DNA of 64,000 nt, from assembly GCA_964016885.1 (NCBI GenBank), contig OZ024741.1:29512001-29576000 (forward strand). The letters run 5' to 3'. Made by a program: the position numbers and the translations under genes. How positions within the stretch are numbered: position 1 is the stretch's first letter; the number at the start of each line of letters is the position of its first letter. The DNA comes from Eledone cirrhosa. Taxonomy: Eukaryota. This document shows, in pieces, positions 39,236-61,110 of this stretch. Below the pieces are notes generated by a model. That model worked only from the letters and a program-made list of their open reading frames with translations. It did no database searches and was not told where the DNA came from.

Positions 39236-39900
39236 AATATTGTTATACTTGGGGAGGGTCATATTTGTGTAATATTGCCAGAAATAATAACAGAACACAC
39301 TCACTGTTTGGTTGGTTTTCGCTTATGTATCTTTTATATCTCCATAGTTAATTTATTTGACAATCAACGTTTATCATTGATTGGCCAACGGTTAAAACTA
39401 CAGATATATATATATATTGTTATACTTGGGGAGGGTCATATTTGTGTAATATTGCCAGAATTAATAACAGAACACACTCACTGTTTGGTTGGTTTTCGCT
39501 TCTCGCTGTCTTTTATATCTGTAATCTAGCTTACTCGGTCCTCAATGTTGCCATTGACTGACCGACGGTCAAAAATAATACAGATACAATATAGATACAA
39601 ACACATATATATAGTTTACATAATTTACATAAATCTTTCGTTGCACATCTGCAACATCGTCAGTGGTGTTATATTTTCCTCCTGTTGTGTAAACTAATTC
39701 ATCGCCGCTATATATATATATATATATATAGTCTATCAAAGTTCTTTCGTTGCACATCTGCAACATCATCAGTGGTACTATTATTATGTTCCCTCCTATT
39801 GTATTGTAATGTTTACGCCATTTCAGTGAGTGTGTTCTGTTATTATTTCTGGCAATATTATTACAACAATATGACCCTCCCCAAGTATAACAATATATAT
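39236..39900 (-). mobile_element. Composite non-coding element: two direct and one inverted copy of an ~80-bp arm, with two hammerhead-like cores
   Basis: Arm at 39236-39320 and 39412-39500, inverted at 39822-39900. Minus-strand CTGAYGA-T-GTTGCA.GATG.TGCAAC-GAAA at 39636-39663 and 39745-39772. Confidence 0.6.
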
Positions 39901-40086
39901 ATATATATTATAGAGTTGAAGAAAGTTGGCTGATCAAAATGTGCCGACTTTTTCTTAAACAGACGTGAAGCACTCTCGTTTTGTATTTCTTAGGATTTTC
40001 TCCGTAAGGTATCGTCCGGAGTTTTAGTATAATAAATAAGAGAGAGGGTTTTATTCGTACATCCTCATTTTATTATCTAATGAAGA

Positions 40087-40157
40087 CGGGGTCGATAAAA
40101 TAAAGTACCAGTAATGCACTGGGTAATTGCTGGCCTTGTGCCTAAAGTAGAAACAAT
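40087..40157 (+). mobile_element. 5'-truncated SINE with 15-bp target-site duplication
   Basis: ATTATCTAATGAAGA on both sides. Confidence 0.85.
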
Positions 40158-40638
40158 TATCTAATGAAGATGTACGAATTAAAGCGTCTCTCTTATATAT
40201 ATATATATAAGAAAAGAACTAAGATTTCACTTCGAGCATAGCTTTATACAAATATGTATAGAAATGTCGTATTTCTAAAGAAACACGGTTTTAGGAAGCC
40301 GTAGCTATGCAAAAACCGGGGCTAACGCCCTCTGGTGGTGTCCCGCAGAAGCAGGGGGACAACCGTCTATGCATTTCAGGCTTGACTGGCCTTGATGAGG
40401 ATGGTCCCTCCCACCGCTTGCGACTGCTGGACAGTCGAGAACATATAGTTTTCTCGTCTGTGTAAATGAGGTGATTAATCTCATTTGCATATGAAGCTGC
40501 ATAAGTTGGCTCAACTTATAATAGAAAAGAATATCTCTCTCTCTCTCTCTCTCGCTCTCGCTCTCTCTCTCTCTCTCTCTCTCTCTCTCTATATATATAT
40601 ATATATATATATATATATATATATATATATATATATAT

Positions 40639-43600
40639 AAATCAAGAAAGAAGAGCGACATGGTTTGCTATACAATAAGGGCTTTATTCACATTGCTGAC
40701 AATTGTTTCTCTGAACTGGTAGGTCTAGAGATCGCTACCCGCCTGTTTTGGCGTCAATCGATCACCAGTACTTTGTTATAACCAGTCTATTCATAAGAGA
40801 ATGCGAGAATGAAGGGAATACACAGGCATGGCTTCTATATATAGTAGTGGCATTAAATCAGAACAATAATAACGATACTCAAATAAATTAGCTGTTAAAT
40901 AGTTAAAATAATCACAACATTAATCTAAGTAAGAAATATAGTATACTGATGACTTTAGCATGTAAAACGAGCTGATATGAAACAGATGTATGAAATTGAC
41001 ATGTAAAAGCTGTCATGCGGTATATTATATATAGTGTAGAGATAACCTGGGGCTTGAAATAATGGACCATTTACTTTACTGTAGGTTTTCTGACCGTAAG
41101 ATTTATTAATTATCTGACAGATAAAATATTTTCATTGTAGTGAGGATGGTAATCTTTATATGGTGTAGAGCCAATTCCTTATTTAAGTGGTCTATATTAT
41201 ATGAAGGGATTGTTAGTTCGAATCATGGAGGTTGTTTAGCTTTCACAGTTCCAATAACAAATCATGCATGAATAAGACAGCAATAATATAGGCAATAAGG
41301 TAATACAGAGGTTAAGAAAGCAAGGTATATATAGAGAGAACATGATGAATACTATTACGGATACATTGGGGTGTTCATTATAACAACAGGAGGAAGGTGA
41401 TATTTCAAGGACTGTGGTAGTAGTCAAATAATGTACTTAGAATTAAGTTCATCTGTTGAAGATCAAGAGTGAGGATGTGGTGTTGACAGCAGCCGAGAAG
41501 AGATATATTTATGGGTTGATAAGATGTTTGCAGACATTACTGGGGTATAGAATTAAGGAGTCTAGAAGCTGTTTAAAGAATATTATAGTTCTGTGGTGGT
41601 CTGTGTGAGAGTGCGGATTTCATATGTTGAATGCTAAGTTATGTTGGTTCGAATCACGGTGGCTTAAATCTTGTGAATTTAGTAGCGATCCTGTGTCTGC
41701 AGAAAATTGACCTTTCTATTTTTGTTGTTGAGTAGCCTTTTATCGTTCCTAAGGATATACAGTAATTCAAGGTCGCAGAGCCTACAATAGGACATACCGG
41801 TACTGTATGCCCTTGCGGCCGACAACCTCGACCAGTTGATATTGTAGTCGATGTTTTTGTCCTTAACTTCTCATTAGTGCACGGTTCTTCATCGAATGTC
41901 TGTGCACATACCATCTTACTTTAAATGTACCCGCGGTAGATCCAATGTAATGCCAAGTGGAGTTGCCCGACTTCACCGTACACCTGTACACTAGGCTCGA
42001 ATCAGGCACCTGTTCGCCAATGGGCACCTATCTGGTAGGTGACAATTCCAGTGTGAGGTGTTATTCCGTGCAGCTTCTACACTGCTGTTTTGTACACTGC
42101 TATAAGTGGTTTGTGATTCATGCCCGTTGAGGTTTTGCTGCGGCGCGCTCGTATGCATTTGCGGTTGTGATACGGTGATGTGTTTATGTTTAGAATTTGG
42201 TGCTTTGTTGCGCATAGGTGGGGTGGTTTCCCTAGAGGTATTTCTGTGGTTGGTCTTGCGTATATGAGATTCTATATTTGCAGCCGTAGAGTATGAGAGT
42301 TTTATAGTTTTTCTATTGAGGATTTTATGAAATCTATGTGATATAGGGAAGTGCTTATCTATTAGTTTAAAAAATGTAGAAGGCAGTCTAGTTTTTACAG
42401 AGGAGTTGAAGATTGGATTAAACCACAGGTATTTTCTTTCTATAATTCTTTTATAGTTTGTAGGGTTTTCATTATTTGTGTTTGGACCACATACTCTAGG
42501 TGCTATTTGTCTACCTCTATGTCTAGTCCGGTTACCTATATTTTTGTGTGAGCGGTTGGTGCCAGTGTTATTGGGTTTTGTTTGAGTTGTCCTTATCCGT
42601 TATAAACTGTAGCTTTTCTTTATGTCCGGCCCTACGTAATGCTGCGTTATAATAGTTAGCATGTTCGTTAAAGATTTCTAGGTTTGAGGATAAGCGGGAT
42701 ATTCGAAGGGATATACTACGTGCTATGGATCTGATTATGGATCGGGGGTGGTTTGAGTTATAAGTAATGTAGGCCAGATTTTCAATATTTTTGTGGAAGG
42801 TTTCTATTAACCCCGTATTTAGATTTAGAGTTACATCTAGAAAGTTTGCCTTTTTATGATTCAGTTCGTAGGTAATACTTAGGCCTAGTTCTTTGAAGAA
42901 TGTTCTAATGTTTTTTTTTTAATCTTTCTATGCTCTTGAAGTTCCTAGCTATAACGAGCGTGTCATCTCTATATATCCCTCCTTGGAGGTTACTGAATTC
43001 GTTATGTAGGTTGTGTGCTATAAATAACCCCACGACGTCAGTGATTTGCGCTGAATCGTTCGATCCCATTGTGATATCGAAGCTGTTTATCCTATCTTTT
43101 CTTACCCAATAGCTATTTTCAAATTTTATGATTGTCCTTCTAGCAGCTAGAATTATTTCAATTTCATCAGGGGAAAGATCGGAGTTATTTTGGGTAAATA
43201 TAAGCGCTTTATCTATGGCGGCTGGGGATATGGATGCGTAGTAATCGTTTATATCGAATTGTATGAAGTTACATGCTTCTCTATTTCCTATTTCATTCAA
43301 TCGCTTGAGTGTGGATTCATTTGTTTTTTTTGTATTTTTTGAACTGAATGAAATTATTGTATGTGTTAAGGTCCATAGAATATACGTTTGATGTTGTGTC
43401 TGCCTTTACTATGATACCGTTGGTGTCTTTTAGTTTTTTTAGTAGTGTATTGATGTCATTTTGTAATTTGTTGTGGTGTGATCTTTTTTAAAATTTAGTT
43501 CCACTTATCATATTCATAAGGTCCAGCTCGAAGGCATCGAGCGTGGTGTTGTTTGGAGTGTTTTTGCAGGATTTGAATCCGTAATTCTCCTTAGAAAATT

Positions 43601-43783
43601 CACTTGTGTTAATAGTTGGTCCTTTGTCGAAGTGGTAAGCCTTCCATCGGACCCTACGAATTGACGCAAACACAGGCAGGTAGCGATCTCTAGACCTACC
43701 AATTCAGAGAAACCATTGTCAGCAATGTGAATAAAGCCCTTATTGTATAGCAAACCATGTCACTCTTCTTTCTTGATTTATTA
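40639..43783 (-). mobile_element. Penelope-like retroelement (RT plus C-terminal GIY-YIG), decayed, with inverted partial pseudo-LTR
   Basis: WKAYHF..ENYGFKS; FIQFDINDYYASI; FDITMGSNDSA; GGIYRDD; LWFNP; NCHLPDRCPL; YIGSTAGTFKVRW; CRLCDLE. 40639-40760 is repeated inverted at 43660-43783. The 3' end abuts (TA)n. Confidence 0.88.
40691..40803 (-). ncRNA. Degenerate type I hammerhead ribozyme in the PLE pseudo-LTR
   Basis: cattct-CTTATGA...GAAA-CAATTG-TC-agcaatg; the core carries one substitution. Confidence 0.5.
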
Positions 43784-60003: not shown

Positions 60004-60328
60004 TACCTCATTTTACTAGTCTCAAGAACGCGTCTACACGACGTGAGAAAGAATCCCAAAAGGCGGAGGGGGAGATAGTCACGCGATATAACGGTCGAGA
60101 AACAGAGCTAAGCCTCTTATAACCACGAAGAAAATACCGCCTTCTTCACTACCTCTTCTGCGGCCTCGATATGAATACCCCCTCCGCCTCCGTGGTATTT
60201 TCTTCGTGGTTATAAGAGGCTTAGCTCTGTTTCTCGACCGTTATATCGTGTGACTATCTCCCCCTCCGCCTTTTGGGATTCTTTCTCACGTCGTGTAGAC
60301 GCGTTCTTGAGACTAGTAAAATGAGGTA

Positions 60329-60416
60329 TCCTCTTGATAAGTCGGCAGACCTCGCAAGGACTCTATATCTTTGATATATTGTTTTTGTTTATGCCACGAA
60401 ACTACATAGTCGAGGA
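60329..60416 (+). ncRNA. Hammerhead ribozyme, U3-A8 variant (copy 1; stem III ctacatag)
   Basis: tcctc-TTGATAA-gtcggca...tgccac-GAAA-ctacatag-TC-gagga. Confidence 0.75.
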
Positions 60417-60919
60417 ATTTACGAACAGTTTAGGTATGATACATTTTATTACTAATTATATCTAAATGTTTCTTCTCTCTTCATAATGTATTTTTAACTC
60501 TGATACTGGTTCAGTCTGGTTCAAACTGAATTGGTCTGTCCCAGTCATTCATTGAGCAACATCGGTGAAGTTGGCACCCTTAACTCACAGTTGGGTGCGG
60601 ATGCATTCATGTATATATGTGTGTGTCCGCATGTATCTGTGTGTTTCTAAATATATTAATAACTCCCTCTGGTCGAGCAATCTTTGAAGTGTGGGGACAA
60701 CTGGAAAGCTTCCATTACTCATACTTCTCGCCTTCTTCACTACCTCTTCTGCGGCCTCGATATGAATACCCGCTCCGCCTCCGTGGTATTTTCTTCGTGG
60801 TTATAAGAGGCTTAGCTCTGTTTCTCGACCGTTATATCGCGTGACTATCTCCCCCTCCGCCTTTTGGGATTCTTTCTCACGTCGTGTAGACGCGTTCTTG
60901 AGACTAGTAAAATGAGGTA

Positions 60920-61007
60920 TCCTCTTGATAAGTCGGCAGACCTCGCAAGGACTCTATATCTTTGATATATTGTTTTTGTTTATGCCACGAAACTACGTAG
61001 TCGAGGA
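60920..61007 (+). ncRNA. Hammerhead ribozyme, U3-A8 variant (copy 2; palindromic stem III ctacgtag)
   Basis: tcctc-TTGATAA-gtcggca...tgccac-GAAA-ctacgtag-TC-gagga. Confidence 0.78.
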
Positions 61008-61110
61008 ATTTAGGAACAGTTTAGGTATGATACATTTTATTACTAATTATATCTAAATGTTTCTTCTCTCTTCATAATGTGTATATATATATATATATAT
61101 ATATATATAT

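Follow-up and report, generated by a model that had tools for sequence, protein, structure and literature searches.

Which elements produced the hammerhead-bearing foldback modules that lie in and beside the (TA)n tracts of the Eledone cirrhosa genome, and what determines where their copies end? The question was addressed in a window of 64,000 nucleotides (GenBank assembly GCA_964016885.1, contig OZ024741.1, positions 29,512,001 to 29,576,000, forward strand), whose interval 39236-61080 holds eight families of such modules, here called A to H. The initial annotation regarded them as one ribozyme-defined class of short, independent and unclassified parasites of Penelope-like elements (PLEs). 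The modules are not one new class, as five of the eight families are 5'-truncated ends of coding PLEs (one Neptune-like and four Hydra-like), an outcome that the initial annotation had itself named as speaking against its reading. Taken together, the modules are probably TA-tract insertions of PLEs and of non-coding tandem riders, in which Hydra-type copies end 7-8 nt upstream of a bulged hairpin that is predicted to act as the binding and start signal of the reverse transcriptase-endonuclease (RT-EN). New here are the two fixed end sites with a bulged hairpin 7-8 nt 3' of each, which we did not find in print; the retrozymes, the TA targeting, the inversion and the tail were already known. The elements concerned are the following.

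39190..39906, minus strand: family A, two 3' ends of a Neptune-like coding PLE and, at 39824-39906, a 3' copy in inverted orientation; cores resembling a hammerhead 39626-39666 and 39735-39775
40637..43930, minus strand: family B, broken, 5'-truncated Hydra-like coding PLE (43655 to 40637); hammerhead 40691-40804; inverted 3' copy with tail 43660-43930
44080..44241, minus strand: family I, element of ~140 nt whose 5' end is fixed and in which no hammerhead was found; bulged hairpin 44128-44152; second window copy 57910-57968
47690..47970, plus strand: family C, 3' end and tail of a Hydra-like coding PLE; hammerhead 47763-47828
48042..48833, plus strand: family D, non-coding retrozyme with a monomer of 427-447 bp and a 5' inversion; hammerhead 48558-48600
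50435..50680, plus strand: family E, 3' end of an older Hydra-like coding PLE; hammerhead 50518-50608
56536..56833, no single strand: family F, foldback of two Hydra-like PLE 3' ends; hammerheads 56573-56638 (minus) and 56749-56814 (plus)
57448..57620, plus strand: hammerhead 57448-57523 missed by the initial annotation; a bulged hairpin (57557-57578) and then a TA tract lie downstream
59100..59684, no single strand: family G, non-coding retrozyme with a monomer of 549-557 bp, in a foldback; hammerhead with long stem III 59390-59519 (plus); hairpin 59150-59174 (minus)
59676..61080, plus strand: family H, non-coding retrozyme with a 591 bp monomer, 1.6 units and a 5' inversion; U3-A8 hammerheads 59916-60003 (minus), 60329-60416 and 60920-61007; hairpins 60497-60558 (site 1), 60662-60679 (site 2) and 59774-59835 (minus)
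61110..64000, plus strand: 5'-truncated copy of a young Hydra-clade PLE family, the candidate helper, with its hammerhead just beyond the window

Insertion ends and the bulged hairpin

The TA targeting proposed for the modules was borne out, as they are (TA)n insertions, and most of them carry an inverted copy of their own 3' part as described (families A, B, D, F, G and H; C and E are without it). TA targeting, 5' inversion and the one-sided tail are already published Penelope traits. In thirteen position-ordered insertions of family H, 20 of the 21 outer 3' ends map to position 158 or positions 323-331 of the monomer. Contigs of an independent run show loose TA ends at 60491 and 60656, the same two H sites. 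Predicted cleavage of the H hammerhead falls after position 78, away from the copy ends, and the ends of copies are found 3' of the cleavage site at distances of tens to hundreds of nt. The hammerhead cut does not set the DNA ends of the copies. Among foldbacks across eight families, 56 out of 59 join one site-1 end to one site-2 end, in a tally that used trimmed references and has no foldback count for family A; two of the three exceptions resemble pairings of separate insertions. For families B, C and G, TA matches dominated the end tallies, from which the site-1 bins alone were used. The rule that the long arm always ends at site 1 was rejected, as it fails in locus L018.

The hairpin opens with RCTC and closes with GAGY; between these boxes lie a variable stem and loop and, on the 3' side, a bulge of 2 nt whose first base is U (UH). 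It stands 7-8 nt 3' of the insertion end. Reference copies of the young PLE (PLE2) and of families B, C, F, G and H have it after site 1; those of PLE2 and H have it after site 2 as well, and after site 2 of G it occurs with an inner stem of 1 bp. Several tails of family E contain the hairpin, often with one mismatch, and the reference copies of families A and D lack it. It is common to six of the eight hammerhead families, to coding Hydra elements, to the riders G and H, and to the ribozyme-less family I.

Further Hydra-type termini, missed by the initial annotation, are located at 52190-52330, 52430-52560 and 45600-46110, and correspond to a foldback remnant of the hammerhead of the young PLE and to two other hairpin-bearing families.

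Since the motif had been read from the families of the window itself, out-of-sample tests were run on a genome sample, on sister copies, on metagenome contigs and on the supplement of Craig et al. 2021. The genome sample comprised 60 evenly spaced stretches of 10 kb (599,800 bases of the 3.0-Gb genome, mostly from large contigs). Before TA tracts of this 600 kb sample, the form with a 2-nt bulge was found 37 times, compared with 4.1 in TA-preserving shuffles (maximum 6), an enrichment of about 9-fold, and bulges of 1, 3 and 4 nt were at background. About 32 hairpins before TA tracts have the U-bulge. Sister copies ending in TA were found for 23 out of 31 sampled hairpins, and in 22 of these 23 the ends lie at -12 to -5 from the hairpin. 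Of 334 offsets, which are redundant, 208 are -7 or -8.

A scan of marine metagenome contigs yielded 78 Hydra-like loci, 39 of them with distinct 5' leaders. The strict hairpin motif was present in 25 of the 39 leaders (2.1 in shuffles). When the pair of boxes was sought with no pairing requirement, 37 leaders had at least one and 23 had two or more, mostly 54-83 nt apart. The interiors of the open reading frames (ORFs), taken as control, gave 2 matches versus 61 in the leaders. The first inner pair covaries. At this pair, the 55 unique motifs, which are phylogenetically non-independent, have C-G in 33 cases, T-A in 9, C-A in 3, T-G in 3 and other combinations in 7 (Fisher p=2e-5). Seven metagenome ends were checked: three were scored, at -7, -8 and -10 (the last an antisense match), two were read by eye at -6 and -7, and two are antisense ends without the motif. 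Four sense-strand ends thus lie 6-8 nt before the hairpin, including the two read by eye. In the supplement of Craig et al. 2021, four out of six THGAGCACT matches are bulged hairpins, found in coral and sea-cucumber Hydra consensuses, and one consensus has the twin hairpin pair before the start codon. Rfam gave no match for 12 metagenome Hydra loci. The words 'hairpin' and 'stem-loop' are absent from the text of that supplement, and no description of the twin hairpin was found in the literature or the supplement text; subscription papers, Repbase notes, figures and the supplements of the 2026 preprint of Li, Clavereau & Pollet (10.64898/2026.07.22.740005) are outside this coverage and may bear on novelty.

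On balance, we favour the view that the hairpin is clade-wide in Hydra-clade Penelope elements and positions the RT 7-8 nt upstream, once per protomer. Such a role would explain the two starts, the one-sided tail and the 5' inversion, and would let retrozymes and ribozyme-less RNAs hijack the machinery. In the proposed pathway, a pseudo-long terminal repeat (pLTR) or a tandem unit would be transcribed, and the Hydra protein would bind both hairpins (RCTC-stem-UH-GAGYRC). Its GIY-YIG domain would nick the (TA)n tract, a targeting established for Hydra and Neptune elements, and reverse transcription would begin internally, at the AU-rich stretch just 5' of the hairpin, as the copy ends suggest. 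The observed foldback, with one arm per site and a one-sided tail, would result when one target strand is extended from site 1 and the opposite strand from site 2. Early termination would leave the short 3' ends of the coding families B, C, E and F, and RNAs that have no ORF and keep both hairpins (G, H and probably I) would use the same machinery. The role of the hammerhead would be limited to cutting multimers into monomers or circles, circular RNAs being established for retrozymes (PMC7229834), without setting DNA ends. Families A and D, without hairpin, probably depend on another PLE clade (A is Neptune-like). For PAc, a Poseidon PLE, internal RT starts were shown in vitro at two sites bounding the tail, and the RNA 3' of the start sites was needed and the hammerhead was not (PMC11167929). 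The site-1 and site-2 ends found here match both the published one-sided tail and the two internal start sites of PAc.

Several observations weigh against a hairpin that guides the RT. One older H copy terminates at position 505, and the copies of the query family L207 end at -43 to -30. The 0-nt bulge form is also enriched before TA tracts (18 versus 5 in shuffles), the loose motif taken without context is no commoner than in shuffles (218 versus 215), and in the metagenome leaders the 0- and 3-nt registers are also above shuffles (10 and 12 of 39). Beyond the first inner pair, the stem pairs only in part. In the antisense control there were 21 matches, which we attribute to the partial self-complementarity of the motif. 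To these points is added the origin of the motif in the same families. The Hydra helper of G and H is proposed from the hairpin alone, as neither has DNA similarity to the eight PLE stretches compared. Binding, initiation and cleavage are predictions from sequence.

The main rival explanation, which we consider unlikely, places the action of the conserved boxes in DNA or in the first strand of cDNA, where they would be internal-promoter or termination boxes or an EN recognition site that resolves an intermediate, and not an RNA hairpin bound by the RT. The 3' box GAGCACT, present in 47 of the 55 unique metagenome motifs, is indeed better conserved than the stem, and the twin boxes are located in the 5' leader, ~40-150 nt ahead of the ATG. 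In addition, the EN of D. virilis needs tail sequence for recognition, as cited in PMC11167929, and Craig et al. 2021 ascribe the tail to EN-mediated resolution (PMC8557442). Nonetheless, the compensatory C-G/T-A change across loops of 3 to >60 nt, together with the fixed 2-nt bulge register, requires a single-stranded fold, and the tail ends of PAc coincide with RT start sites on the RNA (PMC11167929).

Coding families, the candidate helper and the non-coding riders

In the genome search made for each family, the best 40 of 264-2,803 candidates were scored. Neptune-like RT was found in 5 of 15 loci of family A, and one frameshifted copy, locus L194, has a CX4CxxC linker and a GIY-YIG domain, in line with the Neptune definition of a CX2-5CxxC linker before a C-terminal GIY-YIG with CCHH; the Neptune assignment of A is based on the linker and GIY-YIG motifs read in this copy. 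Families B, C, E and F were assigned to Hydra from 36-67% tblastn identity to the protein of the PLE family at 61110. A PLE protein was matched in 9 of 15 loci of family B, and the window copy terminates a broken ORF. In locus L185 an RT and EN are flanked by one direct and one inverted copy of C. The tail of family E continues into the start of an ORF in locus L281, and inverted E copies adjoin truncated RTs. An ORF was absent in 20 of the first 20 loci of family F, and among longer copies a GIY-YIG end was found in register ~1.4 kb upstream in 3 of 15. In families A, B, C, E and F the modules run on into coding PLE sequence, and none of the five is the ORF-independent, non-coding tandem unit that characterises a non-LTR (long terminal repeat) retrozyme.

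The candidate helper at 61110 belongs to a family with 114 scored protein matches at 97-100%, many of them in open frames of 821 codons. It has a single ORF with an RT followed by a C-terminal GIY-YIG domain, and possesses RWT (for RWK), DKT, CxCX5C, CxxC and CxH motifs; these motifs are the basis of its assignment to the Hydra clade as defined in PMC8557442. A Pfam search with the protein gave no curated hit. The family has its own hammerhead in 13 of 14 loci, and (TA)n insertion, 5' inversion and a tail were also found. The stem I of this hammerhead nearly equals those of families C and F. Family H was considered as the pLTR of this PLE and rejected, since the PLE has its own hammerhead, with a stem I close to C and F, and H is merely its neighbour across a TA tract. 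Of 20 H loci, 4 have PLE matches nearby, always downstream; the background, 19 in 180 tiles, is close to this.

Families D, G and H are known non-LTR retrozymes that have amplified independently, so the proposed independent parasites stand for these three families and not for the five coding ends. They consist of head-to-tail units with one type I hammerhead each (G was seen only as partial dimers), and intact hammerheads are retained in most of their copies. The longest stop-free stretches of D, G and H are 86, 71 and 64 aa, and their GC contents of 0.42, 0.33 and 0.38 are below the 45% given for retrozymes. No hit was obtained by tblastn against the Hydra protein, and no similarity to eight PLE DNA stretches was detected. 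Family H is young. A 23-nt stretch of its hammerhead has 7,458 exact genome matches on dispersed sites (control 0), and its arrays contain up to 12 hammerheads with a period of 590-591 bp. All thirteen position-ordered H insertions are made of H sequence only, eight of them with inversion. Contigs of another run include a single H contig of 621 nt (monomer + 30), which was not used as evidence, since a circle or a tandem array would equally give it. Array variants of H do not separate rolling-circle copying from local duplication. In the array with 12 hammerheads (locus L180, 2589-9088), unit variants recur with a two-unit period.

The same three families could instead represent pLTRs, solo or in tandem, that belong to coding PLEs with unsampled full copies and that were later expanded by unequal crossing-over; we regard this as quite improbable. 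Families F and C set a precedent, as they seemed to have no ORF until longer copies were examined, the two-unit variant period of the H array is what local duplication would give, and a pLTR origin is favoured by the 2026 preprint (10.64898/2026.07.22.740005). Nevertheless, coding sequence in register upstream of H was found in none of the 13 position-ordered and none of the 11 best-hit insertions, and the H arrays, inversions and both ends consist of monomer sequence only, with the hammerhead stretch matched at dispersed sites. A pLTR origin is compatible with the present independence of D, G and H.

Family I looks like a short interspersed nuclear element (SINE)-like rider of Hydra PLEs. It possesses the Hydra hairpin 8 nt past its first end (also in locus L045), and most of its 33 distinct copies have the same 5' boundary. 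Nineteen BLAST hits in the 600 kb sample indicate tens of thousands of copies in the genome. No match to family I was found in Rfam.

A class defined by the ribozyme is probably wrong, because the bulged hairpin stands at a fixed distance from the ends and the cleavage site does not, and because family I carries the hairpin and no hammerhead. The original view, in which one new class of short parasites has its ends and mobility set by hammerhead cleavage, is highly improbable and largely refuted, for although most D, G and H copies keep intact hammerheads and these three families are non-coding and amplified, the other five have coding PLE sequence in register upstream, copy ends are remote from the cleavage site, a highly abundant family has no hammerhead found, and the non-coding class was already published (PMC7229834; 10.64898/2026.07.22.740005).

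A further tandem family of the sampled loci (L131 1-2244, L161 and L175) is young and non-coding and repeats every 310 bp; its minimal hammerhead has a palindromic CGCG stem III, and the Hydra hairpin is absent. Two more families with U3-A8 hammerheads are present in L038, L052, L057, L206, L220 and L241, and the copies of one of them terminate ~10 nt past the motif in a TA tract (5 of 5).

Hammerhead census and other features of the window

The eight motifs initially annotated as well-formed hammerheads (47763, 48558, 50518, 56573, 56749, 59916, 60329 and 60920) match a type I descriptor at exactly these positions. All eight have the type I core (CUGANGA or its U3-A8 form, GAAA and UH, with stems I and II) and a short stem III that is palindromic or nearly so, which confirms the minimal, PLE-associated type. 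In the family H copies at 59916, 60329 and 60920, U3-A8 replaces the C3-G8 core. Dinucleotide shuffling of 39236-61080 gave one hit in 300 global shuffles and none in 300 local-block shuffles, so the density exceeds that of shuffled AT-rich sequence. The strict descriptor had no match in the remaining window (1-39235 and 61081-64000). Among 90 Rfam matches in the window, up to E=5, none belongs to a hammerhead family or to any other family of relevance, and the same holds for the surroundings of 48558.

The motifs annotated as degenerate differ from one another. The one at 40691 (family B) is a mutated copy, and the core of its family is intact in 7 of the 9 matches listed. The one at 39636 represents the standard form of family A, with a good stem II and only a weak stem I. 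Degeneracy was rejected for 59389 (family G), which is complete by folding and intact in the other copies listed; its stem III is a hairpin of ~65 nt that a GUC site closes, and its stem I has 7-8 bp. In the overlooked hammerhead at 57448-57523, the window copy carries U4C.

The genome sample had 17 strict hammerhead hits, or 0.62 per 22 kb, compared with 8 in the window interval. The claimed cluster is dense relative to the sample; the interval was chosen post hoc, so the density is relative only. Enrichment beside (TA)n was confirmed, as all 17 sampled hammerheads have a (TA)5 within 400 nt downstream, versus 24% of random positions. The phenomenon is genome-wide, the window being one of its local, TA-rich hotspots, and the hammerhead cluster is ordinary for such a genome.

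Outside the modules, a 33-bp minisatellite array of more than 22 kb with long repetitive open frames occupies 1-22950, with higher-order repeats such as a ~13.8-kb period at 98% identity. A non-LTR retrotransposon at 26738-32352, minus strand, possesses an RT frame of 823 aa, endonuclease fragments and an upstream zinc-knuckle ORF. At 54760-56220 there is a fragment which we take to be a Helitron-like helicase (202-aa frame 55297-55905), and the F foldback adjoins its 3' side. A tRNA-like SINE of ~190 bp ending in (ATT)n is found at 36312-36537, 37481-37889, 47436-47621, 48974-49163, 51845-52033 and 53301-53487, and in family E it is often found inserted at site 1, where it separates the end from the hairpin.

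Significance and comparison with known systems

PLE RTs are the closest relatives of telomerase, and it is an open question how they select template and start site, and by which enzyme animal retrozymes are mobilised. Both questions become testable with a short covarying RNA motif spaced constantly from the two starts and a young intact helper in the same genome. If the proposed role is true, the hairpin would for the first time define a template-recognition element in a PLE clade and tie retrozymes to a specific helper at the molecular level. It would also provide an annotation signature for Hydra-dependent repeats.

Non-LTR retrozymes were described in 2020 by Cervera & de la Pena (PMC7229834) and linked to PLE pLTRs in the 2026 preprint, in which eight of nine predicted Xenopus retrozymes failed to cleave (10.64898/2026.07.22.740005). 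Similar to these elements, D, G and H are non-coding tandem units with one type I hammerhead each and GC <45%, dispersed as monomers to multimers. Their monomers of 427-591 bp exceed the 170-400 nt of the first description (PMC7229834) and are within the 51-972 bp of the preprint. The PLE-type 5' inversion, the TA targeting, the two fixed ends and the Hydra hairpin (in G and H) do not appear in the parts of the published texts covered here. Family H further differs from published retrozymes in its U3-A8 core, and G in its ~65-nt stem III.

The coding elements agree with the Hydra clade (PMC8557442) in the RW, DKT, CxCX5C, CxxC and CxH motifs, the single ORF, the canonical pLTR hammerhead, the (TA)n insertion, the inverted 5'-truncated copy and the one-sided tail, and Craig et al. 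2021 include a cephalopod Hydra family, Hydra-1_Obim. The tails of the Hydra-type elements of this genome are ~80-180 nt, in contrast to the 30-40 bp reported, and their 3' untranslated regions measure ~1.0-1.4 kb. The twin bulged hairpin sits in the published consensuses and is unremarked in the part of the text covered (PMC8557442).

PAc (Frangieh et al. 2024, PMC11167929) is a parallel for the proposed initiation, with two internal starts that bound the tail, an AT-rich target, extension of both strands, a need for RNA 3' of the start and a dispensable hammerhead. What differs here is a sequence-and-structure motif in the 5' leader, at a fixed spacing of 7-8 nt 3' of each site. The palindromic stem III and dimer-type architecture resemble the minimal PLE hammerheads (PMC4209133), for which opposite-strand motif pairs 100-700 bp apart and a covariant U3-A8 in Schistosoma Cercyon were also reported. 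Those are mostly single truncated copies, whereas U3-A8 here marks a young tandem family of near-identical units. The riders are also comparable to Chlamys elements such as MRC1 (Craig et al. 2021), which are non-coding PLE riders with head-to-tail copies. Riders of the MRC1 type resemble their helpers in 3' sequence, whereas the hairpin is all that G and H have in common with the Hydra elements compared.

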